A DNA stretch of 64,000 bases from an uncultured Bacilli bacterium (lineage in GTDB: Bacteria; Bacillota_I; Bacilli_A; RF39; UBA660): assembly GCA_947626565.1 (NCBI GenBank), contig CANQSQ010000005.1:6462-70461 (forward strand). Direction: 5' to 3'. The notes beneath the pieces were generated by a model, which ran no database searches, was not told the DNA's origin, and was given only the letters and a program-made list of their open reading frames with translations. Position 1 is the stretch's first letter; each line of letters begins with the position of its first letter. Below are positions 2,849 through 54,272 of the stretch, in pieces. The position numbers and the translations under genes are program-made.

Positions 2849-5803
2849 ATGTATTTAAAAGAGATAGTAGCAAGTGGATTTAAATCTTTTGCAGATAAAA
2901 TTGATATAAAACTGGATGGAAAGACAACTTGTATAGTAGGTCCTAATGGTTCAGGTAAAAGTAATGTAGTGGATGCTGTTAGATGGGTTTTAGGAGAACA
3001 ATCAGTTAAATCGCTTCGAGGCGAAGGTTCAATGAGCGATGTTATTTTTTCAGGTAGTAAAAGTAGAAATCCTTTGAATGTGGCTTCAGTAGAACTTATA
3101 TTTGATAATAATGATCATTATTTAAATGTACCCTATGTTGAGATATCAATAAAAAGAAGAGTATATAGAAGTGGTGAAAATGAGTACTATTTAAATAATG
3201 AAAAATGTCGGTTAAAAGATATTACTAATTTACTTTTGGATACAGGTATGGCTAGAGAGTCATTTAATATTATTTCCCAAGGAGAAGTAGAGAGAATATT
3301 AAGTAATTCGGCTAATGATAGACGAATTATTTTTGAAGAAGCTTCAGGTATTTTAAAATATAAAAGACGAAAAGAAGAAGCTTTAAAGAAGTTAGATCGA
3401 ACTCATAATAATATTGATAGGGTTAATGATATTATAAAAGAGTTGGAAATGCAGGTTGGTCCATTAAAGGAACAAAGTGAAAAAGCCCAGGAATATTTAG
3501 AAAATAAAAAAGGCTTAGATAAGTATGAAGTAGCTTTATTAGCATATGATATTGAGAATTTGAATGCTATTTTAGACCAGACAAAAAGACAGAAGGAACA
3601 TATAGATGAAGAAATAGTTACGTTACAGAATACAAGTAGTAATAATGATGCTATTTATATGCAAAATAGTACTAAATTAGAAAAATTAGAGTTAGAGAAG
3701 AATGATTTAAATAAACAATTGTTAGAAGTAACGGAAGAAGTAGAAAAAATTAATGGGGAAAGAAAGCTTTTAAAAGAAAGAAGTAAGACAACTAAGGAAG
3801 AGGATGAAGTAAAAGAAAATATTAGAGAATTATTAGATGCTAAGGCTAAATTAGAAAGAAATATTGTTGTTTTAGAAGAAGAAGTAAAAAGTGTAAGTAA
3901 AGAAATAGTAAATCAGGGCGAAAAAATTAGAGTTAAAGAAGAAGAGCTAAAAAGCATTAAAATGACTAGACGGATGCTTAATAATGACTATGCTGAACAT
4001 GATCAAAATATTGTTTCGATGGAACATAAAATTGGTAATTTAAAGAATGAAATAGAACAAGGAACGGATATGCCTAATAGTGTTAGGAAAGTGCTAAAAG
4101 AAACTAGTTTAGAAGGTATTCATAATACTATAGGTAATATTTTAACTATTGATCAGGAATATATAAAGGCTTTAGAGGTAGCTATTAGTGCGAATAAGAA
4201 CTTTATTATAACAACTAATGAAGAGGCAGCTAAAGGAGCTATTAACTTTTTAAAAGATAACCATTATGGACGAGCAACTTTTTTTCCAATGAATGTTATT
4301 AAAGAAAGATACATAGATTATGAGAGCTTAAATATTTTAAAAAATAGTAGTGATTTTATTGGGGTTTTGAGTGATTTAGTTTCTTATAATAATAAATATG
4401 AAAATATTGTTAAGAATCAATTAGGAATTGTTGTAGTAGCAACTAATATTGATAGTGCTATTAGACTTTCACATATGATTAAGGCTCGATATAAAATAGT
4501 TACTTTAGATGGTGAAGTTGTCAATGTGGGTGGTTCATTAGTAGGTGGTTCAATTAATTCTTCTAAAAGTGTTGTTTCTTTAAAACAAGAGGTTAAACAT
4601 TTAGAGGCTAAAAAAGAGCTTTATCAAAAGGAACTAGAAGAAATTCAAAAGGAGTTACAGGAAGTAAATAATAATATTGCTAAAACGGAAGAAGATTTCT
4701 TTGTATTGACCAAGGAAGAAGTACACTTAAAAGAAGTGTTAGAAAGTAAAAAGAACGAGTTAAAGGAATTAGAACAAAATAAAGAAGAAGTAAAGCAAGA
4801 ATATGAATCCTTAGAAGTTATAAAGAGTAATTCTTTTAATGAGAAAGAAGAAGAGTTAATTAATTTATTTCATGAAAAGAGTGCTACTAAAGAACAAATA
4901 CAAGTAAAAATGAATTCAATTAGTAAAGAGATTGATGAATTAAAAGAGGCCATAGAAAAGGCTCAGGCTTTAGAAAAAGTAAAAAATAGTAAACTTCGAA
5001 CTTTGGAAAAACAAGCTCGAGATTTGGAAATTGAAATTAATAGAGCTGATGTAAAGATAGATAATATGTTAAATACTTTGAGTGTAGATTATGAACTTAC
5101 GTTTTCTAAAGCTAAAAGTGATTATAAATTAGATATTGAACCGGATGAGGCTAGAAATAAGGTAAATACTTATCGAGCTAATATTAAAAGAATTGGTATG
5201 GTTAATATTGATGCTATAGAAGAGTATGAAAGAGTTAATACACGGTATGTTTTTTTGAATAATCAAAGAGAAGATTTATTAAAGGCTGAAGATACGTTAT
5301 TAGAAATTATGAATGAAATGGATGACGTCATGAAAGAAGAGTTCTTTAATACATTTATGAATATTAAAGAAGAATTTAAAAAAGTATTTAAAGAATTATT
5401 TGGGGGCGGAAATGCCGATTTAAAAATGACAGATCCAGATAATTTATTGACGACAGGAATTGAGATAGTTGCTTCACCTCCAGGTAAGAAGTTAACGACT
5501 ATTTCCTTGTTGTCTGGAGGAGAGAAAACGTTAACGGCTATTTCGTTATTATTTGCTATTCTTAATGTTAGAACAGTACCATTTTGTTTGTTTGATGAGG
5601 TTGAAGCGGCATTAGATGAAGCTAATGTAGCCCGCTTTGGTAAATATTTAGAGCATTATCGAGATAAGACTCAGTTCTTAATTATTACGCATAAAAAGAA
5701 AACAATGGAGTATGCTAAAACATTGTATGGAATAACAATGCAAGAATCAGGGGTATCAAAGTTAGTAAGTGTAAAATTAGAAGATCATGCCGAAGTAGTG
5801 TAA
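2849..5803 (+). CDS. smc: Chromosome segregation protein SMC (984 aa, short-arm form)
   Basis: It has a Walker A (GPNGSGKSNVVDA), long coiled-coil regions, a hinge (GRATFFP), the signature motif LSGGEKTLTAISLLFA and a Walker B (FCLFDEVEAALD). Confidence 0.95.
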   Translation: MYLKEIVASGFKSFADKIDIKLDGKTTCIVGPNGSGKSNVVDAVRWVLGEQSVKSLRGEGSMSDVIFSGSKSRNPLNVASVELIFDNNDHYLNVPYVEISIKRRVYRSGENEYYLNNEKCRLKDITNLLLDTGMARESFNIISQGEVERILSNSANDRRIIFEEASGILKYKRRKEEALKKLDRTHNNIDRVNDIIKELEMQVGPLKEQSEKAQEYLENKKGLDKYEVALLAYDIENLNAILDQTKRQKEHIDEEIVTLQNTSSNNDAIYMQNSTKLEKLELEKNDLNKQLLEVTEEVEKINGERKLLKERSKTTKEEDEVKENIRELLDAKAKLERNIVVLEEEVKSVSKEIVNQGEKIRVKEEELKSIKMTRRMLNNDYAEHDQNIVSMEHKIGNLKNEIEQGTDMPNSVRKVLKETSLEGIHNTIGNILTIDQEYIKALEVAISANKNFIITTNEEAAKGAINFLKDNHYGRATFFPMNVIKERYIDYESLNILKNSSDFIGVLSDLVSYNNKYENIVKNQLGIVVVATNIDSAIRLSHMIKARYKIVTLDGEVVNVGGSLVGGSINSSKSVVSLKQEVKHLEAKKELYQKELEEIQKELQEVNNNIAKTEEDFFVLTKEEVHLKEVLESKKNELKELEQNKEEVKQEYESLEVIKSNSFNEKEEELINLFHEKSATKEQIQVKMNSISKEIDELKEAIEKAQALEKVKNSKLRTLEKQARDLEIEINRADVKIDNMLNTLSVDYELTFSKAKSDYKLDIEPDEARNKVNTYRANIKRIGMVNIDAIEEYERVNTRYVFLNNQREDLLKAEDTLLEIMNEMDDVMKEEFFNTFMNIKEEFKKVFKELFGGGNADLKMTDPDNLLTTGIEIVASPPGKKLTTISLLSGGEKTLTAISLLFAILNVRTVPFCLFDEVEAALDEANVARFGKYLEHYRDKTQFLIITHKKKTMEYAKTLYGITMQESGVSKLVSVKLEDHAEVV

Positions 5804-10301: not shown

Positions 10302-10991
10302 GTGAGTTTTGGATATCGATATCGTAAACAAATTGTGATAGGAATGTGTTGTTTATTATTAGTGGGAGTTAGTAGTTTTTTTATTGTAAAACGCGTTATG
10401 AAGACTAAGAAGGAAGAGGCTAAAACAGAAGTAATAGCAAATTTTGTCAAGAAAAAAGAAACTTCTAATACTAAGGAAAAAAAGACCGAGACGTTATATA
10501 AGGTAGATATTAAAGGAGAGGTAATTAATCCAGGAATATATTCTTTAAGCAGTGATTCGCGGGTAATTGACGTTATTAATTTAGCAGGGGGTTTAACAGA
10601 TAAAGCTAATACTTCAGTAATTAATTTAAGTAAAAAAATAAGTGATGAGATGGTTATTATAATTTATAGTAATGGACAAGTACAAGATTTTGAGAAGACC
10701 AAAGAGGTAGAAAAACAAGTAATTGAAAAGTGTCAACAAGTTGATAGTAATGCGGTTAAAAATGATGCTTGTATAGGAGATGATAGTAGTATTTCAAATA
10801 AGGTTATTAATATTAATACGGCTACTGTAGAAGAATTAATGACACTGCCAGGAATAGGAGAAGCTAAGGCTAAAGATATAATTAGTTATAGAGATAGTAT
10901 AGGTGGTTTTAAAAATATAGAACAAATAAAAGAAGTATCAGGAATAGGAGATAGTGTCTTTGCTAAAATTAAGGACTATCTTGCTATATGA
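10302..10991 (+). CDS. comEA: Competence protein ComEA (DNA receptor)
   Basis: A GTG start follows an AGGAGG RBS. The protein has an N-terminal TM helix, a SLBB-like segment (VDIKGEVINPGIY) and a C-terminal helix-hairpin-helix (INTATVEELMTLPGIGEAKAKDII). Confidence 0.85.
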   Translation: MSFGYRYRKQIVIGMCCLLLVGVSSFFIVKRVMKTKKEEAKTEVIANFVKKKETSNTKEKKTETLYKVDIKGEVINPGIYSLSSDSRVIDVINLAGGLTDKANTSVINLSKKISDEMVIIIYSNGQVQDFEKTKEVEKQVIEKCQQVDSNAVKNDACIGDDSSISNKVININTATVEELMTLPGIGEAKAKDIISYRDSIGGFKNIEQIKEVSGIGDSVFAKIKDYLAI

Positions 10992-13026
10992 TTATGGTTA
11001 TTATTTGTTACTAATACTGGTTTTAGTTACAGTTTTAGTAAGAGTTAATATTACTAAAAAAGAAGTTTATCAGAATAAAAGACAAGAAATTGAAGGGATT
11101 ATTACTAAGTATAATATTGATGGTGATAAACTTAGTTTAGAAGTTAAGGCTCAAGAAAAGTTGGTAGGAAACTATTATTTTAAGAGTAAAGAAGAAAAAG
11201 ATAAAGGGGTAAAAATAACATTAGGTAAGAAGATAAAATTAGTTGGAACGGTAAAAGAGGCGGCTAAGAATACGACGAAATATTTATTTAATTACCAAGA
11301 GTATTTGAAAAGACAGGGAATTTATAAAATAATAGAAATTGAGGAGTATGATATAGAAAACAATAAAGTTCACTTGTATTATAAAATAAAGAATAAAATA
11401 AAAGAGCACTTAGGAGATAATCCTTATGTGAAGACGTTTATTTTAGGAGATAAGACGGGTATTGATAAGGAGGTAATGGTTAGCTATCAAGAAAATGGAA
11501 TAGCTCATTTATTGGCGATAAGCGGGATGCATATTAGTTTACTTGCAAGTATACTATTGAAATTATTAAAAAAGATGAAAATAAAGGAAGAGACATCTTT
11601 TACGATAGTTTGTTTATGTTTAGGAAGTTATTTGCTGATAGCCCAATTTAGTGCTTCTATTTTAAGAGGCGTATTATTTTTTATTTTATTTGGGATAAAT
11701 AAAAAGTATTATTTTTATATAAAACCTTTAAATATATTTTTAGTTGCTTTAAGTATAACTTTATTTATCAATCCTTATTTTATATTTGATGTTGGTTGTC
11801 AGTATTCATTTGTGATTAGTTTTTATCTAATATATTTAAGTGAAATATTAAAGAGTAAAAGCTATTTAGGGGGTTTATTAAAAGTAAGTGTCATATCCTT
11901 TATAGTTAGTATACCAATAAGTTTATATAATTTTTATCAAGTTAATTTATTTAGTCTTGTTTTAAATTTATTTTATGTACCTTTAGTTTCAATAATAATT
12001 TATCCATTATCGTTACTAGTAGGTGTTGTACCAAAACTAGAAGGTATTTTTAATATTTTGATTTATATTTTAGAAAAATCTTCTTTGTGGTTCAGTAAAA
12101 AAGATATGTTTAAATTATATTTTTACCGATTACCAGGAGTTGTTTATCTTTTATATGGCGTAGTAATTTTTGGGGGTTTTTGGCTTTTTAAAAAAAAGAA
12201 AAAGAAGATAGTATTTGGGATATTAGGAGGTATTTTAGTAATACATTACTTGCTTCCTTACGTTAATGGAGCAAGGATAGAGATGATTGATGTGGGACAA
12301 GGAGATTCTATTTTAATTTGTAATAAGAAAGAGGCAATACTAATTGATACAGGAGGGAGAAAAAGTTATGAGAAGCCTTTTCTTAAACGTAAGCAGCAAA
12401 ATAGTATTGTTAGAAATACAACAATACCTTTATTAAAAAGTTTAGGTATAAAAAAGCTGAAATATTTAATTATTACGCATGGAGATTATGACCATATTGG
12501 AGAAGGTATAAATTTAATTAATAATTTTAAAGTTGAAAAAGTAGTAATTAATAGTAATCAGATAAATTTTTTAGAGCAGCAACTGATAAAGAAGAAAAAA
12601 TACATTATAGGTGAAGAAGGATTAGTAATTACATGTGGTGATATAAAATTAATTCAATTAAATAAAGATTTAAAAGGAGAAAATGATAGTAGTTTAATTT
12701 TTTTAGGAGTTTATAATAAGAGAAAGTTTTTATTGATGGGAGATGCTTCTAAAAAAAGTGAAGAGGAATTACTAAAAAATTATACCTTAGGTAGTATTGA
12801 TATTTTGAAAGTTGGACATCATGGTTCTGATACTTCTTCAAGTTCAAAGTTTATTGAGTCTATAAAACCAGAAGTTTCTTTAATATCAGTCGGTAAAGAT
12901 AATAAGTATGGACATCCAAGTAAAGAGGTGTTAAAAATTCTAAATAAAAGTAAAATTTATAGGACAGATGTATGTGGTAGCGTTAGTATAATTTTTAATA
13001 AAAATAATTATAGTGTAGGATGTTAG
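10954..13026 (+). CDS. comEC: DNA internalization channel ComEC/Rec2 with a C-terminal MBL domain
   Basis: It has a polytopic membrane core (AHLLAISGMHI), an MBL domain (MIDVGQGDSIL, ITHGDYDHIGE, VGHHGS) and sits directly after comEA. The exact start is uncertain because the ORF overlaps the comEA 3' end. Confidence 0.88.
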   Translation: MSLLKLRTILLYDYGYYLLLILVLVTVLVRVNITKKEVYQNKRQEIEGIITKYNIDGDKLSLEVKAQEKLVGNYYFKSKEEKDKGVKITLGKKIKLVGTVKEAAKNTTKYLFNYQEYLKRQGIYKIIEIEEYDIENNKVHLYYKIKNKIKEHLGDNPYVKTFILGDKTGIDKEVMVSYQENGIAHLLAISGMHISLLASILLKLLKKMKIKEETSFTIVCLCLGSYLLIAQFSASILRGVLFFILFGINKKYYFYIKPLNIFLVALSITLFINPYFIFDVGCQYSFVISFYLIYLSEILKSKSYLGGLLKVSVISFIVSIPISLYNFYQVNLFSLVLNLFYVPLVSIIIYPLSLLVGVVPKLEGIFNILIYILEKSSLWFSKKDMFKLYFYRLPGVVYLLYGVVIFGGFWLFKKKKKKIVFGILGGILVIHYLLPYVNGARIEMIDVGQGDSILICNKKEAILIDTGGRKSYEKPFLKRKQQNSIVRNTTIPLLKSLGIKKLKYLIITHGDYDHIGEGINLINNFKVEKVVINSNQINFLEQQLIKKKKYIIGEEGLVITCGDIKLIQLNKDLKGENDSSLIFLGVYNKRKFLLMGDASKKSEEELLKNYTLGSIDILKVGHHGSDTSSSSKFIESIKPEVSLISVGKDNKYGHPSKEVLKILNKSKIYRTDVCGSVSIIFNKNNYSVGC

Positions 13027-25699: not shown

Positions 25700-27991
25700 A
25701 TGAAAAAAATGTATAAAATTTCCTCTTTTCTTATTCTACTTTTTTGTTTATTTTTATTACCTTATAAAGTAGATGCTTTGGCAGTTGGAGTAAATACTAT
25801 TGAGGAAGATGTAGGTTACTTAGTTGATGATTATAGTCAGATGCAATTTTCTAATATTAAGTATAAAGATTTTTCGGATAGTACAGTAGCTCCAACTTTT
25901 GGTTTTACCGGTATTGTTTATAATGGTGGTACTAGTGATAATTCTTTTATAGCGACAGCTAAGTTTTATGCTGAAGATAAAGAATTAATTGCGACAATAG
26001 TGTCTAATCAAGTAGTACCTGCAGGAGAGAAGAATTCCTATAGTCAAGTTGCGAATGTCAGTGAGATTAGAAGTGGGTATAGTGTTAAAGATATAAGGTA
26101 TTATCATTTAGAAATTATTATAACTAATAATACATATGGTTTAAATCCTACAGAGTATCGGGGTAGGGAATATATTATAGATAATTATGATGTTAATATT
26201 GATGTTAAAGAAAATAATGTTTTAGAAATAACAGAAAAGATAGGTGCTTATTTCAATGTTGAAAAACATGGTATTTTTAGAAAAATTCCGTTAAGAAATA
26301 AAGTACAAAGATTAGATGGAAGTTATTATTATAATAGGGTTAAAATTAGTGATATTTTTGTAGATAATGAGTATACGTTAAGTAATGGGGCTGGTTACAA
26401 AGTAATTAAGATTGGTAGTAGTTATGCGACTTTGACAGGACATCAGGATTATACTATTCGGTATAAATATAATTTAGGACGAGATCCGGGAAAAGATTAT
26501 GACGAGTTATATTTTGATTTAATTGGAACAGAATGGGATACCATTATTGAAAATGTAAATTTTACAATTAATATGCCTAAAGAATTTGATAAAGAGAAGT
26601 TAGGCTTTGCTAGTGGAGTAGCTGGTTCAAGTGATAGTTCTAATATTAAGTATGAAGTTAATGGTAATGTTATTACTGGTAGTGTAGAAAAAAGTCTAAA
26701 TACTGGTGAAGGATTAACCGTTAGATTGGAACTACCTGAAGGTTACTTTTCTAATGCAAGTAGTAATCTAGATGTTATGATGATTATAGCGTTATTAGGA
26801 CCAATTTTATGTTTAGTGATTGCTATTAGTTTATGGTTTATATATGGTAAAGATAATAAACCGGTCGAGACAATAGAATTTTATCCACCAAAAGACTTTA
26901 ATAGTTTAGAAGTAGGTTATGCGTTTAGGGGTAGAGCTGAAAATCAAGATGCTGTGTCATTACTTATTTATTTAGCTAATAAAGGTTATATTAAAATAGC
27001 CGAAAATGAAGGAAAAAAAGATAAGTCATTTAAAATTATTAAGATTAAGGAATATGATGGTAATAATATAAATGAAAGAATTTTTTTGAATGATTTATTT
27101 AAAGGAGGAAAAACAGAAGTTACAGAAAGTGATTTACAGGATAGCTTTTATATTACGATTAATGAAATTTTAAGTAATATGAATAGTAAAAATAATAAAG
27201 AACAATATTTTGAGAAAAAAGCTTCTTCTAAGACAATTATTATTGTTTTGATGATGATTATAACTTTTTGTTTAATTACAATTCCACCGCTTTATTACTA
27301 TGGAGATATGGATACAATATTAATTGCCTTAATTTTCCCTGGTGTTGGTTTAGCGGTAATGCTTACTTTGCTTTTTGGAGGTCCACGGACTATGTATGTT
27401 AATGGTAAAGCAACGTATTCGAACTGGGGAACGAAAATTTTTGGTTTAGTATGGGGAACTTTATTTGGTGGTATGCCTTGGGCATTTACCGTATTACCAG
27501 CACTTTTAATAGATTATATATATGCTTTTATTTATGTTGTAGGAATAATATGTTTTATTGGAATGACTATTTGTTTAGTATATTTACCTAAGAGAACAAA
27601 ATATGGTACGGAAATTCTAGGAAAACTATTAGGCTTTAAAACTTTTTTAGAAACAGCTGAGAAAAATAAATTAGAAGCTATGGTTATGGAGAATCCAACT
27701 TATTTTTATGATATTTTACCTTATACTTATGTTTTAGGAGTATCAAATAAATGGATAAAAAAATTTGAAGGAATCGCAATGCAACCACCAACTTGGTATG
27801 ATTCACCTGATGTGTTTACTGTTCATTCATTTAATACCTTTATAGATAATACTATGACTTCGGCAAGAGATGTTATGTCTTCTTCTCCGTCAACTAGCAG
27901 TGGTAGTGATAGTTTTGGAGGCGGTGGCTTCTCTTCTGGTGGTGGCTTTTCCGGCGGCGGTAGCGGCGGTGGAGGAGGAGGTTCTTGGTAG
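25700..27991 (+). CDS. DUF2207-family membrane protein with a poly-Gly/Ser C-terminal tail
   Basis: It has a signal peptide, a large extracellular domain, several TM helices and a GGGFSSGGGFSGGGSGGGGGGSW tail. It sits directly after lemA, which is the usual pairing. Confidence 0.8.
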   Translation: MKKMYKISSFLILLFCLFLLPYKVDALAVGVNTIEEDVGYLVDDYSQMQFSNIKYKDFSDSTVAPTFGFTGIVYNGGTSDNSFIATAKFYAEDKELIATIVSNQVVPAGEKNSYSQVANVSEIRSGYSVKDIRYYHLEIIITNNTYGLNPTEYRGREYIIDNYDVNIDVKENNVLEITEKIGAYFNVEKHGIFRKIPLRNKVQRLDGSYYYNRVKISDIFVDNEYTLSNGAGYKVIKIGSSYATLTGHQDYTIRYKYNLGRDPGKDYDELYFDLIGTEWDTIIENVNFTINMPKEFDKEKLGFASGVAGSSDSSNIKYEVNGNVITGSVEKSLNTGEGLTVRLELPEGYFSNASSNLDVMMIIALLGPILCLVIAISLWFIYGKDNKPVETIEFYPPKDFNSLEVGYAFRGRAENQDAVSLLIYLANKGYIKIAENEGKKDKSFKIIKIKEYDGNNINERIFLNDLFKGGKTEVTESDLQDSFYITINEILSNMNSKNNKEQYFEKKASSKTIIIVLMMIITFCLITIPPLYYYGDMDTILIALIFPGVGLAVMLTLLFGGPRTMYVNGKATYSNWGTKIFGLVWGTLFGGMPWAFTVLPALLIDYIYAFIYVVGIICFIGMTICLVYLPKRTKYGTEILGKLLGFKTFLETAEKNKLEAMVMENPTYFYDILPYTYVLGVSNKWIKKFEGIAMQPPTWYDSPDVFTVHSFNTFIDNTMTSARDVMSSSPSTSSGSDSFGGGGFSSGGGFSGGGSGGGGGGSW

Positions 27992-28570
27992 ATGCTTTGT
28001 CCTCAGTGTGGAAAAGAAAATAAAAATACTAATATAAAATGCGAGTATTGTGGGTATGAGTTAATTAATGGAGAAGAAATAAAAAATGATGCAACAAAGG
28101 CCTCAATTAAAATGGTTAAACGATTTGTAAAAATTATTTTTGGGGCTTTTTGTCTTCCATTATTAATAATTGGTGTTGTCTTTTTAATAATAGGTATTAA
28201 GGAAAATATGGCAGAAGTAACCCAGGCAAAAGATTATGTAGAGACAACAGGACATTTAAAAAATTTTATAAACTGTAAAGTGGATGATGGTACGGAAGTA
28301 TGTGAAGCTATTTATGAATATCAAGTAGATGGAAAAACTTATACAGCTTCACCGAAAATGACGGGTACTAGGAATGCTTTTAAAAAAGAGAAAACTATTT
28401 TATATAATCCTAATAGACCACAAGAGAATGTAATTTATGCAGGATATGGTATTTTTATTATTGTTGGTTTATGTCTAATCATGGCAGCTATCGCTATAAT
28501 ATTTAGTAAAAGAAAAATTATTAAAAGATTAGAACAGGTCGAAGAACAAAACTTAGTTAATATAAATTAA
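27992..28570 (+). CDS. Zinc-ribbon plus DUF3592-like membrane protein
   Basis: It has an N-terminal CPQCG...CEYCG zinc ribbon, a TM helix, a DUF3592-like segment (CEAIYEYQVDGKTYTAS) and a second TM helix. Its ATG directly abuts the TAG stop of the preceding gene. Confidence 0.7.
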   Translation: MLCPQCGKENKNTNIKCEYCGYELINGEEIKNDATKASIKMVKRFVKIIFGAFCLPLLIIGVVFLIIGIKENMAEVTQAKDYVETTGHLKNFINCKVDDGTEVCEAIYEYQVDGKTYTASPKMTGTRNAFKKEKTILYNPNRPQENVIYAGYGIFIIVGLCLIMAAIAIIFSKRKIIKRLEQVEEQNLVNIN

Positions 28571-47941: not shown

Positions 47942-47977
47942 ATTTTTATATAGTATAGGATGAGTGGTGAAGTAATT

Positions 47978-50926
47978 ATGCCTTTAAAAAGTAAGCCGTT
48001 ACCTAAAAGCAAAATGTTAATGATAAGTCTTTTGATAGTAGTAATTTTACTAGTAGGAGTTATATCTATTACTTTTGCGGAATTGACACCAGTAAAAACA
48101 GTTACTATTTATTCGGAAAAGAAAAACTATGATGATTATGAAGCTGGTGCTTGGAAAGTAGATAAGAGTGCTGAATGGGAGGATTATGGTAAGGCTGAAA
48201 TTACATTTGACGTTTCAACGATTATGAAATCTGATACAGAGTATTCTGATATTTTCTTTGTTTTAGATATATCTGGTTCAATGGATGGAGAAAAATTACA
48301 AAAGGTTAAGGAAGATGCTACTTCTTTGATTTCATCACTATTGACCAATAAAAATAATCAAGCGGCTTTAATAACGTTTGATACAACATCTGAGATTATT
48401 GAAGAACTAACAAACGATGAAGAAAAATTAATAAGTGAAATATATGGTTTAGAGACTAAGGGTAATACTAATTATTATCAGGCTTTAGTAAATGTTGAAT
48501 CTCTTTTAAAAAATTACAAACCTCAATCTAATCGAGAATGTATTGTTTTGTTTTTAACGGATGGGTATCCTAATGAAAATACTCCAAATCAAATAGCTCA
48601 ATTTCAGTACATAAAGAATGCTTATCCATTTGTGACAATTAATGGGGTTCAATATGAAATGGGCGATGAAGTTTTAGAACCTATAAAAGAAATAAGTGAT
48701 CGGCAATTTATTGCCGAAATGGAAAGCTTAAATAATGTTTTATTTGAGGCTTCCGTTGCGCCAATGTCTTATGAAGATTTTACGATAGTTGATTATATTG
48801 ATACTGATTATTTTACGGTTGAAAGTGAACGAGATATAAAGGTAAGTCAAGGTAATGTAGAATTTTCTAAGGAAGAGCAAAAAATAACTTGGCATATTTC
48901 TAAGTTGGTATCCGGTCAAGGAGCTCAAATGACTATTAAGGCTAAACTAAAAAATGAATATTTAAAAGATGGTGGAATATTTCCAACTAATGAAAAAGAA
49001 GAAATTAAATCCAAAATAGACAGCGATGAAGAAAATGTTGAAAGTACTGAAACACCAATTCTTTCTAGTCACTATAATGTTATTTATGAAGAAAATGCTC
49101 CTGATGATTGTCAGGTAGAAAATATACCAAAACAAGAAAAACATGCTGTTTTTGAAACGGTAGAAATTAGTAGTAAAAAACCTAGTTGTGAAGGTTATCA
49201 ATTTAAAGGTTGGGAAATTGTAACGGAAAGTGCAGAAAAGGTAAATGATGATTATTTTGTTATGCCTGGGGAAAATGTACACATAAGAGCTAAGTGGAGT
49301 AAATTACAGTTACAAAAGTCCATGAATGGAAAAGTGGTTAAAGTACAGACTTTATATAATATAATGAAGGATGCCTCAAAACAAGGAACAAAAGAAGAAG
49401 TGTTGGATACCAATGTTGATTTTAGTAGTGCACCAACTGATGATGATTCAGGTGTTTATAAAAGAAGTGGAACCGAAAATGATACATATCCTATATATTA
49501 TTATCGGGGAAATATTTCTAATAACAATGTAATATTTAATAATATGTGTTGGAAGATGGTTATTACTACGAAAACAGGAGGAGTTAAATTAATTTATAAT
49601 GGCTTACCATCTGAAGAAGGAACATGTGATAATACAAAAAGTAATGCTCAGGTAACAACGAAAGTTTTTAATGGCAGTTCTAGTTCTCCTGCTGATGTAG
49701 GATATATGTATGGAACTAGATATACTTATTCTGAACTCAGTATAAGGTGGCATAGTATAGTAGGAAAAAGTAGAACTTATCAAAGTTCGATGTCAAGTCA
49801 TACGTATTATTATAGTAACACGGTATCATGGGATGGGGAAAAATACACTTTAGATAACCCAGAAGCTCATGTTTGGAGTAGTGACCGTACTCAATTATAT
49901 GGTTACTATACTTGTAAAACAGAAAATGAAGAAAATTATACTTGTTCAACTGTTTATTGGGTTGATACCGATAATTCTAGTAGTAGTTATATGTATTACG
50001 TAGAGATGAGTAATGGAGAAACGTATGATAGTTTATATAATCAAGCAGAAAATACCACTTGGGAGTTTGGAAATGATGTTACATATAATGAAGAAACTGA
50101 GGAGTATTTATTAGTTGATTCTATAAAAATTCATCCTCTTAATTGGAGTAATGAGTATAAACTTGTACTTAATGCTCATCACTATACTTTTAGTGATTCA
50201 ACTAGCAAAAGTTCCGTAAAATATTTATGTTATATAGAAAGTAGTTCTGTATATTATATAACTTTAAGTAACGGCAAAAAAGTAGAAGATGCTTTAGAAG
50301 AAATGTTTTCTAGAAATCAAATAAATTCAACTATGAAGACATATATAGAGGATACCTGGTATAAAGAAAAATTTTTAAATGAAGATGAAACACCTAACGA
50401 ATATGCAGAAAAAATAGAAGATACAGTATATTGTAATGATCGTAGTATATCTAATTTGGGTAGTTGGGATAACGATGCTGCTTCATTTGGTTACTTAGAT
50501 TTTGGTGCCAGCAATCGAGTATACGATACTCATATACCAAGTTTAGAATGTGATAAATTAGATTCTTTTACGGTAAGTTCAGAAATAGGTAATGGTAAAC
50601 TAAAGTTTCCAGTAGGATTACTAAGTACAGATGAAGCAATGTTAGCAGGAGGAAGAAATTCAGCAAATTCAAAGTATTATCTATATACAGGTAGTAATTA
50701 TTGGCTGTTGTCCCCTTACGGTTTCAACTATCGCAACGCTGAAGTCTTCCGCGTCAATTCTTATGGTAACTTGGACAACTACAACGGCTACGTCCGCGAC
50801 ACGTACGGGGTCCGTCCTGTAATTTCACTTATTCATGACACAATGACTGAAGGTGGAACAGGAACGGTAGATGATCCTTATACTATAGCGATGAATGTAA
50901 ATGCTGATGAATTGGGTAACAGTTAG
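47978..50926 (+). CDS. Large membrane-anchored surface protein with a vWA domain, a Listeria-Bacteroides-type repeat and a C-terminal lectin-like module ending in a GVRPV motif
   Basis: It has an N-terminal TM anchor and a vWA MIDAS motif (FFVLDISGSMDG, GNTNYYQAL, LTDGYPN). A repeat of the GYxFxGW type is present (CEGYQFKGWEI). The C-terminal region has YYYRGNISNNNVIFNNMCWKMVI and YWLLSP...GVRPVISL. The start is the ATG at 47978 or, as in the ORF track, the ATG at 47960. Confidence 0.85.
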   Translation: MPLKSKPLPKSKMLMISLLIVVILLVGVISITFAELTPVKTVTIYSEKKNYDDYEAGAWKVDKSAEWEDYGKAEITFDVSTIMKSDTEYSDIFFVLDISGSMDGEKLQKVKEDATSLISSLLTNKNNQAALITFDTTSEIIEELTNDEEKLISEIYGLETKGNTNYYQALVNVESLLKNYKPQSNRECIVLFLTDGYPNENTPNQIAQFQYIKNAYPFVTINGVQYEMGDEVLEPIKEISDRQFIAEMESLNNVLFEASVAPMSYEDFTIVDYIDTDYFTVESERDIKVSQGNVEFSKEEQKITWHISKLVSGQGAQMTIKAKLKNEYLKDGGIFPTNEKEEIKSKIDSDEENVESTETPILSSHYNVIYEENAPDDCQVENIPKQEKHAVFETVEISSKKPSCEGYQFKGWEIVTESAEKVNDDYFVMPGENVHIRAKWSKLQLQKSMNGKVVKVQTLYNIMKDASKQGTKEEVLDTNVDFSSAPTDDDSGVYKRSGTENDTYPIYYYRGNISNNNVIFNNMCWKMVITTKTGGVKLIYNGLPSEEGTCDNTKSNAQVTTKVFNGSSSSPADVGYMYGTRYTYSELSIRWHSIVGKSRTYQSSMSSHTYYYSNTVSWDGEKYTLDNPEAHVWSSDRTQLYGYYTCKTENEENYTCSTVYWVDTDNSSSSYMYYVEMSNGETYDSLYNQAENTTWEFGNDVTYNEETEEYLLVDSIKIHPLNWSNEYKLVLNAHHYTFSDSTSKSSVKYLCYIESSSVYYITLSNGKKVEDALEEMFSRNQINSTMKTYIEDTWYKEKFLNEDETPNEYAEKIEDTVYCNDRSISNLGSWDNDAASFGYLDFGASNRVYDTHIPSLECDKLDSFTVSSEIGNGKLKFPVGLLSTDEAMLAGGRNSANSKYYLYTGSNYWLLSPYGFNYRNAEVFRVNSYGNLDNYNGYVRDTYGVRPVISLIHDTMTEGGTGTVDDPYTIAMNVNADELGNS
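50705..50818 (+). other. Compositionally aberrant NNC-codon patch inside the vWA gene; candidate DGR variable region
   Basis: I counted by hand across 38 codons. Of these, 22 end in C, 60 of 114 nt are G or C, and only 23 of 114 nt are A. All four Arg codons are CGN and four Val codons are GTC. The flanking codons on both sides return to the AT-rich usage of the rest of the gene. The patch ends 108 nt before the stop codon. Confidence 0.45.
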
Positions 50927-52440: not shown

Positions 52441-52475
52441 ATATGATACAATTAATTGTATAATAGGTGAATGAT

Positions 52476-54272
52476 ATGAAGAAATTGAATAATAAAGGGT
52501 TTGCTATTTCAACAATGTTGTATGGCTTATCAATAATGGGTGTTTTAATTGTATTATTACTAATGAGTATAATGTCTTCTAATAGGATTAATACAGCTAA
52601 TTTTGTAAATCAGATAGAAGATGATTTGAATCGTTTTAGTTTAACAGAGACAACTATTAGGTCATCAGCTGAAACAACTGGTGCCCAGGAATATATAGTT
52701 CCTTATGGACAAGCTGGCTGGTATAAGATAGAGTTATGGGGAGCATCTGGTGGCGATAAAAATGGACATATTGGTGGAAAAGGTGCCTATACTTCGGGAG
52801 TAATATATTTAGAGGAAAATACGCATTTATATTTTTATATAGGTACTCAAGGAACGACAAGTGCTGGTGGTAAAAATGGTGGTGGTCCTAGTAATTCTTC
52901 AACTGCTGGTGGTGGTGGAGCTACAGGAGTACGAATGGAAAATGGCAATTACGAGGATACGAGATCAGTTCAAACTAGAATTATGGTAGCCGCTGGTGGA
53001 GGCGGAGCTACTAATAGTGCCAATGGTGGCAATGGTGGAACTTTACAAGGTTATACGACAAGTGGTGGAGCTGGCTCAGCTACCCAAATTAGTGGTAATT
53101 TTATTACGAAAAGTGCTGGCGGTGGAGCCGGATTTCGTAATGGGGGAGTTGCTGAAGGTGGAAGTTCCTATATTTCTGGTTATGCGGGAGTTAGTTCTTA
53201 TAAATTAAATACTAGTACTAATACTTTAGCCCAAGAGACTGGTTTAGTAGCCATTGATTATAAAGAGCCTATTTATAATACTGAAACAGGAGATTTTACA
53301 GGTAGTTATTATACTCCGGCTCGAGGTTATAGATTTATAAATGGTTTTATGGTAGCTGGAGCTAATAAAGGTGATGGAAAAGCTAATATTCAAAAAATAT
53401 CAGAATCAACAGCTAATTTACCAACTAAGAGTAATTTAACAAATGTAAAAATGATAATTGATTGTACTAGTTCTGATGCAGCTGTTTGGCAAGAAGTTCA
53501 AGCTATTGCAAATGGCGTTAATGTAGTAAAGACAGCTAGTACGGTTAATACGTCAACTTCTAATAATGGGAATGTTAAAGATGGAAATTTAGCAACTACG
53601 GGTAATATTGCATCACCGACAACGCAAAACTGTTTAAAAATAACATTAAATAGTAATACTAATTTAGATGAAGTAGCGGTTTGGCATAAGAGTGGAAATA
53701 TTAATAAACATTCGTTAAGAGTATGTACTTCAACAAGTGAAAGTAGTTGTAGATCTTTAAGTAATTTTGATGCTGTAGGTGATAGTGATCCGATAGTAGA
53801 GAGTGTTAATGGTTTACATTATTCGGCTTATCGTACTGATACAGTAGCTAAACCAGCTGATGGAGTTTATTATATTATTCCAGTAGTTGATGAGTCTGTT
53901 ACTTTAACGACTAGTGATCCTAATGCAGGAGAGTCTTTAGTTACATTAAAAGGAATAGATGGAACAAGATTTCAAAAATGGAGTATTCAAAATCTTGATG
54001 GAACTTATTATAAGATATTAGGTACGCAAAATAATTATGCTTTTCAATATCGTGAAGGTACTCCGGATGCTGGAGAGTATTTGGTGGCTCCAAAAGAGTA
54101 TTTTGGTAATCAGGAAGAAAAATGGCAAATCATTCCAACAACTAATGGACGTTATATAATTAAGTCACAATTGGGAAGTAAATTAAATAAAGATGGTAGT
54201 TATGTTAGGTCAGTACTCAATTCTTATACAGGCCAATCTACAAAATTTTATTTAGTTAATGTTGATTATTAG
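52476..54272 (+). CDS. Membrane-anchored glycine-rich protein with an ALK/LTK-type Gly-rich domain, a discoidin-like domain and a ricin-type beta-trefoil lectin-like domain
   Basis: The N-terminus KKLNNKGFAISTMLYGLSIMGVLIVLLL is pilin-like or a signal anchor. The Gly-rich domain reads YKIELWGASGGDKNGHIGGKGAYTSGVIYLEENTHLYFYIGTQG...AAGGGGAT. A galactose-binding-like segment follows (VWQEVQAIANG...VKDGNLATT...LDEVAVWHK). QxW-type repeats follow (FQKWSIQ, EEKWQIIP). The ATG at 52476 follows an AGGTGA RBS. Confidence 0.8.
   Translation: MKKLNNKGFAISTMLYGLSIMGVLIVLLLMSIMSSNRINTANFVNQIEDDLNRFSLTETTIRSSAETTGAQEYIVPYGQAGWYKIELWGASGGDKNGHIGGKGAYTSGVIYLEENTHLYFYIGTQGTTSAGGKNGGGPSNSSTAGGGGATGVRMENGNYEDTRSVQTRIMVAAGGGGATNSANGGNGGTLQGYTTSGGAGSATQISGNFITKSAGGGAGFRNGGVAEGGSSYISGYAGVSSYKLNTSTNTLAQETGLVAIDYKEPIYNTETGDFTGSYYTPARGYRFINGFMVAGANKGDGKANIQKISESTANLPTKSNLTNVKMIIDCTSSDAAVWQEVQAIANGVNVVKTASTVNTSTSNNGNVKDGNLATTGNIASPTTQNCLKITLNSNTNLDEVAVWHKSGNINKHSLRVCTSTSESSCRSLSNFDAVGDSDPIVESVNGLHYSAYRTDTVAKPADGVYYIIPVVDESVTLTTSDPNAGESLVTLKGIDGTRFQKWSIQNLDGTYYKILGTQNNYAFQYREGTPDAGEYLVAPKEYFGNQEEKWQIIPTTNGRYIIKSQLGSKLNKDGSYVRSVLNSYTGQSTKFYLVNVDY

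Follow-up and report, generated by a model that had tools for sequence, protein, structure and literature searches.

A diversity-generating retroelement-type variable region, probably a remote target, in a vWA-fused surface protein gene of an uncultured low-GC Bacilli bacterium

We analysed a 64,000-nucleotide stretch of DNA from an uncultured Bacilli bacterium (contig CANQSQ010000005.1, positions 6,462 to 70,461; hereafter the window), in which a gene for a predicted surface protein bears, close to its 3' end, a short patch of strongly deviating composition. A first-pass annotation had proposed that the patch is the variable region (VR) of a diversity-generating retroelement (DGR) at the C-terminal end of a surface protein. 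In the established DGR pathway, a reverse transcriptase (RT) prone to errors at adenines copies a template repeat (TR), and the resulting cDNA replaces the VR. The protein of 988 amino acids consists of an N-terminal hydrophobic membrane anchor or signal, a von Willebrand factor A (vWA) domain, an immunoglobulin (Ig)-like or Listeria-Bacteroides-repeat region, and a C-terminal module of ~530 amino acids ending in a DUF6273 domain. The family alignment shows this last module to be common to a family of proteins of ~450-490 amino acids. In addition to VWA_2, the Pfam VWA family is matched above threshold (52.1 bits against a cutoff of 23.8). The DUF6273 match (PF19789), obtained with the last 281 amino acids scanned alone, exceeds the gathering cutoff by a narrow margin (24.0 against 23.5 bits, E=4e-5) and covers residues 197-250 of this fragment and positions 120-170 of the 172 in the profile, which is only its last third. 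The same domain is matched in 9 of 25 family members, with a best E-value of 2.2e-7. The VR, counted from the TGG at 50702, occupies residues 915-953 of the protein.

The patch (positions 50705-50818, 114 nt) contains 23 A, 35 C, 25 G and 31 T, and its G+C content of 52.6% (60/114) stands against 28.5% for the 64-kb window. Its C content is the highest of any 114-nt stretch in the window, and in G+C it ranks second, below positions 27897-28010. Read in frame, 22 of its 38 codons end in C (NNC codons), against 48 of 951 in the remainder of the open reading frame (ORF). The counts of NNC codons, G+C and A given in the first-pass annotation are reproduced here, and the abrupt change of composition that it described at both edges is borne out. 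Since amino acid composition could mimic an NNC bias, we compared the codons ending in C and in T, a synonymous test independent of amino acid content: the patch has a C:T ratio of 22:10, the remainder of the gene one of 48:444 (Fisher p = 5.5e-14). The shift is present within individual amino acids, with GTC:GTT at 4:0 against 0:28 for Val, and C:T at 4:2 against 7:59 for Tyr, 5:1 against 9:60 for Asn and 2:0 against 4:57 for Asp; Phe is shifted likewise. The proposed contrast in Arg codons is not borne out statistically. The remainder of the gene was said to encode Arg as AGA but uses AGR and CGN codons seven times each, and the difference from the patch (four CGN, no AGR) is not significant (p = 0.12).

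A segment rich in Tyr, Asn, Asp and Arg could in principle shift the composition by chance, or through local selection on codon usage or amino acid composition, with no special mechanism involved. The synonymous comparison speaks against such an origin, as do the degenerate patterns matching the patch, which have 0 occurrences in 100 shuffles. Moreover, one homologue (P0010) encodes the full scaffold without a single NNC codon, which shows that the composition of the patch is dispensable for the protein. This explanation is effectively refuted, and we assign it a negligible probability. The stretch at positions 27897-28010 (+ strand), with 57.9% the most G+C-rich 114-nt stretch of the window, was considered as a second VR and rejected, as it encodes the Gly/Ser-rich C-terminal tail (GGGFSSGGGFSGGGSGGGGGGSW, then stop) of the ORF at 25700-27991.

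Relatives of the target gene are found next to complete DGR cassettes. In two contigs of the Joint Genome Institute (JGI) metagenomes, L005 and L006, a homologue with 51% identity (P0009) is followed immediately by a bAvd gene and an RVT_1 gene. In L005, the 3' end of the target (positions 450-561) is repeated at positions 890-1001 with 20 differences, 19 of which fall at adenines of the second copy. This locus is a canonical DGR consisting of VR, TR, bAvd and RVT_1. Three further loci, L038, L076 and L080, bear an RT, and two of these also carry Avd. A scan based on the adenine rule recovers the templates of L005, L038 and L076. All 15 mismatches between VR and TR are on template adenines in L038, and 17 of 24 are in L076, where the other seven lie at the 5' boundary; the pair in L080 was read by eye from the translation and its mismatches were left uncounted. 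The templates of L005, L038 and L080 encode one Asn-rich design, SPNNFNNNNAN.FNVN..GNLNNNNVNNTNGVRP, of which the L076 template is a more divergent version. Target domains at the cassette loci share 37-53% identity with the domain encoded in the window.

The patch in the window follows these templates codon by codon. In the alignment to the templates of L038 and L005, in which the patch has two extra codons, 16 of the 17 AAY codons are matched by NNY codons, and the encoded amino acid is unchanged at 16-17 of the 20 scaffold positions. The proportion of would-be adenines replaced in the patch is 15/34 (44%), next to 41%, 51% and 61% in the verified pairs. The patch and the templates share the codons GTC AAT TCT, GGT AAY TTG and the terminal GGN GTC CGT CC, and the ends of the patch are the ends of the template homology (TGG ... 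CGT CC). The first-pass annotation had placed the patch at 50705-50818; comparison with the related templates retains its 3' limit and puts the start probably three nucleotides earlier, at the TGG at 50702. All G+C-rich VRs of the family and all four templates end in GGN GTS CGN CC, whereas the compositionally ordinary copies end in GGT ATT AGA CCT. This codon-for-codon match to verified templates turns resemblance into identification, and on these grounds we identify the patch as a DGR-type VR. The placement of a VR at the C-terminal end of a surface protein is thereby upheld, through homology to the cassettes, the DUF6273 match above the cutoff and the adenine-specific VR/TR pairs. By the same comparison, the G+C content and NNC bias of the patch are the composition of the template itself, placed in an AT-rich gene; a template composition imposed in this way accounts for a change that begins and stops at codon boundaries matching the template ends. 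The G+C-rich 3' end of the VR, GGGGTCCGTCC, is presumed to be a site resembling the initiation of mutagenic homing (IMH) sequence, which would anchor cDNA synthesis and homing. None of these templates conforms to the VR of the window under the adenine rule, the best fit covering 88 of 117 positions, which indicates that its own template is a different member of the lineage. The features of the locus are listed in Table 1.

Table 1. Coordinates of the target gene, its domains and variable region in the window, and of the spacer element in related cassettes
Feature	Position	Strand	Description
Target gene	47960..50926	+	ORF, predicted surface protein of 988 amino acids
vWA domain, amino acids 99-202	48254..48565	+	Pfam PF13519 VWA_2, 62.2 bits against a cutoff of 27, E=8.3e-17
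C-terminal end of DUF6273, enclosing the VR	50669..50830	+	Pfam PF19789 match
DGR-type VR, 117 nt including the leading TGG	50702..50818	+	Encodes WLLSPYGFNYRNAEVFRVNSYGNLDNYNGYVRDTYGVRP; identified by composition, codon statistics and template correspondence (L005, L038)
G+C-rich 3' end of the VR	50807..50817	+	Counterpart of the end common to VR and TR in related cassettes
Spacer element	L005:1010-1062; L038:~11070-11118; L080:~3440-3489		Confined to cassette loci among 86 loci

Three of the cassettes share a conserved element just 3' of the TR, ATTT(A/G)TAACA ... TGCTA(T/C)GGT(A/G)AAATT. Its position and distribution make it a candidate spacer or priming element of the DGR RNA in this cassette lineage, and it provides a useful probe for cassettes in the form of the motif TGCTAYGGTRAAATT. 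L005 contains, in addition, a tandem second TR-like unit at positions 1258-1450, found in the same form in L006 and not present in L038 or L080. The 5' end (TGGGCGGGCTCGCCG), the 3' end (GGCGTCCGTCCG) and the spacer motif are all duplicated in this unit. Its interior is 53 nt long against 85, is T-rich with ~5 adenines, and reaches a stop when read in the frame of the target (W A G S P V S A S S F L, then stop). The unit could be a decayed duplicate, or else a non-mutagenic donor able to truncate the target. The cassette lineage appears to be cellular rather than viral: L005 adjoins secDF, a chromosomal context, and the viral contigs of IMG/VR contain neither the cassette signature nor a close relative of the cassette RT. 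An origin of the lineage in phages was rejected on the latter grounds.

A census of representative genomes, based on a tight family alignment, returned 332 family members, of which the best 80 were fetched as loci. These 80 all come from uncultured gut metagenome-assembled genomes (MAGs) labelled Bacilli, Tenericutes, Mycoplasma sp. CAG:877 or Erysipelotrichaceae. Several MAGs, including those of loci L012, L013, L019, L020, L022 and L024, are titled 'uncultured Muribaculaceae' (Bacteroidota); their family genes lie on contigs of 29-36% G+C, like those of the MAGs labelled Bacilli, and these bins are probably mislabelled. Sixty-two distinct equivalents of the VR were collected. About two-thirds of them, from genomes of 27-33% G+C, are G+C-rich (48-67%) and contain 11-25 NNC codons; the remaining third or so resemble their hosts in composition, contain 0-5 NNC codons and encode Arg as AGA. 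The occurrence of the same kind of patch in dozens of related natural genes from many metagenomes rules out engineered recoding, which had been raised as an explanation. The G+C content at third codon positions (GC3) of the VR in the window is 0.72, the 15th among the 62 copies, and falls between the VRs adjacent to cassettes in L038 (0.76) and L005 (0.65), from which the patch looks recently written.

Most of the G+C-rich patches in the family lack a cassette nearby. An RT is present at only 3 of the 80 genome loci, templates turn up only at loci bearing an RT, and some ten G+C-rich VRs for which the full 10 kb on each side is available have neither RT nor template within it. With 3 of 80 loci bearing an RT, a remote location is the norm in this family. 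Many MAGs are represented among the fetched loci by 3-6 copies, each on its own contig. Three copies in one MAG have the same scaffold nucleotides, even at synonymous sites, and most of their differences fall on the first two codon positions (13, 13 and 4 differences), which is suggestive of a shared template; the pattern is not clean, and two other copies in this MAG have drifted at third positions. In L034 and L074 the patch is blurred by synonymous C-to-T drift. One contig (L064) carries two family members ~3 kb apart, at positions 10604 and 13763, which are host-like with 1-3 NNC codons and apparently represent tandem abandoned copies.

We consider it the most likely interpretation, with a probability of roughly 70%, that the VR in the window is a remote target served in trans by a cassette elsewhere in the genome. 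We infer that this cassette would lie in the same genome, over 50.7 kb upstream of the gene or over 13 kb downstream of it, and that the gene would be one of several remote targets. Under the pathway outlined above, a TR elsewhere in the genome would be transcribed, and the DGR RT together with Avd would copy the TR RNA to cDNA, misincorporating opposite template adenines. The cDNA would then replace the VR of ~115 nt, anchored at its G+C-rich 3' end. A template of AAY codons set between fixed scaffold codons would give rise to NNY codons, which allow 15 possible amino acids and no stops. In this manner ~17-19 positions might be rewritten in the ligand-binding tip of DUF6273, while the scaffold W..SP..F....A..F.V...G.L......V...GVRP would be kept. 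Such an arrangement has precedents: 45 of 372 DGRs were reported to have non-adjacent targets, ten of them with targets more than 100 kb away; these belong to non-phage lineages, and the action of DGRs in trans was shown experimentally (PMC5758913). DUF6273, too, has been described as a domain targeted by DGRs, its C-terminus bearing the VR (PMC11792537, PMC10743442).

A number of results weigh against a remote, working cassette. We searched the window for the TR by repeat finding, by an 'X or A' degenerate pattern with up to three mismatches, and by an adenine-rule scan tolerant of mismatches and validated on L005, all of which return only the VR. A tblastn search of the window with the RT and Avd of L005 gives no match, and the spacer motif of the cassettes is not found there. 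The earlier observation that the 64 kb contain neither template nor RT is confirmed by four independent probes, namely the degenerate pattern, the adenine-rule scan, tblastn and the spacer motif. Beyond the window, a first degenerate pattern for the cognate TR, which would recognise the template as well as any sister VR with the same scaffold bases, whatever the variable codons, has zero matches in the 2.9 million viral contigs of IMG/VR and in 185,579 representative genomes, the latter a weaker result because the TCT anchor of the pattern is possibly a variable codon. The 3' two-thirds of this pattern have zero matches in the JGI metagenomes, and a corrected pattern free of the TCT anchor has zero matches in the viral and metagenome collections. 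Exact look-ups of the vWA protein, GyrA and HrcA return no record. The window's own genome is not among the collections scanned, so these negatives say little about the remainder of that genome. The comparison of L005 with L006 (JGI samples 3300029305 and 3300031555) points in the same direction: they represent the same locus with an identical VR (111/111), and this single comparison gives no sign of ongoing diversification despite the adjoining intact cassette.

Evidence from structure and from the flanking sequence is likewise unfavourable in part. In the AlphaFold2 model of the last 281 amino acids (pLDDT, the predicted local distance difference test, 79.7), the VR forms three consecutive beta-strands, a prediction compatible with the published description of a beta-hairpin. 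A Foldseek comparison of the model with PDB gives nothing significant, the best match being the T. ramosa IgA peptidase 9QA6, which contains DUF6273 (E=0.01). Against BFVD, weak matches comprise a phage DUF6273 protein (probability 0.90) and DUF1566 and C-type lectin proteins. Searching the PDB sequences with a profile returns only noise (a sialidase at E=0.12) and no sequence similarity to Mtd. The assignment of the domain to the C-type lectin fold comes from the literature (PMC10743442) and was not recovered by Foldseek. Downstream of the VR in the window, the best stem within 48 nt measures 4 bp; a 6-bp stem follows the VR in L005 only, and most VRs of the family have no hairpin. Such a hairpin or cruciform occurs in some DGRs and is not a universal feature of them. 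A downstream hairpin was accordingly ruled out as a target-recognition element, being absent from the window and inconsistent across the family.

These negatives are expected as well if the VR is orphaned, that is, if it was written by a DGR whose cassette is now gone from the genome or did not accompany this gene copy, leaving the VR frozen and slowly decaying. The missing TR, RT, Avd, spacer motif and hairpin all fit this explanation, as does the failure to find a template in the scanned collections, and the roughly one-third of family copies that have decayed demonstrates that abandonment does happen. The patch, however, has not drifted towards host composition: its 22 NNC codons, its exclusive use of GTC over GTT and its GC3 resemble those of VRs next to cassettes that look live. 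In a genome of 28% G+C, synonymous C-to-T drift would be expected to blur the patch, as it has in L034 and L074, and the last rewriting must at the minimum have been recent. The 64 kb are also a small part of the genome in a family where remote targets are usual. We therefore hold an orphaned VR to be the main rival, considerably less probable than a target served in trans but carrying appreciable weight; the lack of decay argues against long abandonment, and a recent loss of the cassette could still account for the locus.

The sharp edges of composition are also what a conversion tract would leave, and the multiple copies of the family in related genomes could provide donors, so that the patch might have come by recombination or horizontal transfer from a G+C-richer homologue or the VR of a paralogue, with no retrohoming at the locus. 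The degenerate pattern, permissive and inclusive of the patch, matched nothing in the genomes, viral contigs and metagenomes scanned, and on this basis a near-identical stretch in a G+C-richer sequenced organism, which had been named as a possible source, is excluded. The patch begins and stops where the TRs of related cassettes do, a feature that conversion by a paralogue would not reproduce, and the window holds no second member of the family. All donors of this type of sequence found here reside in equally AT-rich genomes, which implies that the G+C content stems from the template design and not from a G+C-rich organism. We consider transfer of this kind very unlikely.

The gene lies in the otherwise unremarkable chromosome of a low-GC Firmicute. 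The window contains, in this order, gyrB, gyrA, leuS, the target gene, ylbD/E/F, rsmD, a gene for a glycine-rich protein, hrcA, grpE, dnaK and dnaJ, with nearly all genes on the + strand. The closest full-length homologue (L011) is likewise vWA-fused, with 52% identity across 954 amino acids and a G+C-rich VR; 52% is the best identity to the gene in any of the collections. Its gene stands at the start of a contig, and no cassette is found in the ~10 kb fetched downstream. Judging by this homologue, the vWA-fused architecture is conserved. A protein of 601 amino acids encoded 1.5 kb downstream of the target gene (52467-54272, + strand) matches the ALK/LTK glycine-rich domain (PF12810, E=3.9e-27), a domain family of animal receptor kinases found here in a bacterial protein, and shows a weak match to a ricin-type lectin. 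Across most of the window (1-64000) the GC skew has strongly positive values of about +0.3 to +0.48, with dips that coincide with minus-strand genes at 6-8 kb, 28-32 kb and 60-62 kb.

If an active cassette exists, the organism could produce ~10^20 (15^17) variants of the binding tip of this vWA adhesin-like protein and leave the rest of the gene untouched. Such variation would be relevant to host attachment, antibody evasion or phage resistance in uncultured gut Bacilli with small genomes. On a wider scale, it is possible, though we hold it only tentatively and think it more doubtful than likely, that uncultured low-GC gut Bacilli possess a large paralogous family of surface proteins tipped with DUF6273, with 3-6 copies or more per MAG in the loci fetched, and with one cellular cassette rewriting many scattered copies in trans as others decay. 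This would amount to a genome-wide, retroelement-driven system of surface variation that reaches a vWA adhesin among essential genes. In a more exotic version, the chromosome would have no cassette and a mobile element would supply it, so that surface proteins of the host would be diversified only when the element is present. The series of VRs in the family, ranging from copies that look recently rewritten through shared-template to decayed ones, could allow DGR activity to be dated by composition alone.

The mechanistic paradigm for such systems is the DGR of Bordetella phage BPP-1 (Mtd, TR, Avd and Brt). The locus described here resembles it in its presumed adenine-specific mutagenesis, in a VR placed where the target ORF ends and in the G+C-rich element at the 3' end of the VR. 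It differs in having no hairpin or cruciform downstream of the VR, no sequence similarity to Mtd and no adjacent cassette. Closer in domain are the DUF6273 targets of Faecalibacterium prophages and the 'tentaclin' proteins of gut phages (PMC11792537, PMC10743442), which share the Pfam domain with a VR at its C-terminal end, a segment of the beta-hairpin type, the design of AAY templates giving NNY codons, and frequent fusion to Ig-like domains. Those targets are phage or prophage proteins with an adjoining cassette; the gene in the window is chromosomal, placed among housekeeping genes (gyrA, leuS ... hrcA, dnaK), fused to vWA, and has no cassette in the 50.7 kb before it or the 13 kb after it, and the related cassettes look cellular. 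Closer in arrangement are cellular DGRs with remote targets, such as that of Treponema denticola, whose seven targets are non-adjacent, and those of Lineage 4 in Wu et al. 2018 (PMC5758913): in these, one cassette serves scattered paralogous genes for surface proteins, with targets that can lie more than 100 kb from the RT and no association with phages. The window differs from these in the host lineage (uncultured low-GC gut Bacilli, or MAGs labelled 'Tenericutes'), in the target domain (DUF6273), and in its link to a cassette, which for the window is inferred. The cassettes of L005/L006, L038, L076 and L080 have a homologous target domain, the same template design and the 3' end GGC GTC CGT CC, although the templates of L005 and L038 are two codons shorter than the VR in the window. 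DGRs, DUF6273 targets and remote targets have all been described before, and the patch is not categorically new; a host lineage and a vWA-fused architecture are added to the described system, and the working principles of DGRs are unchanged.

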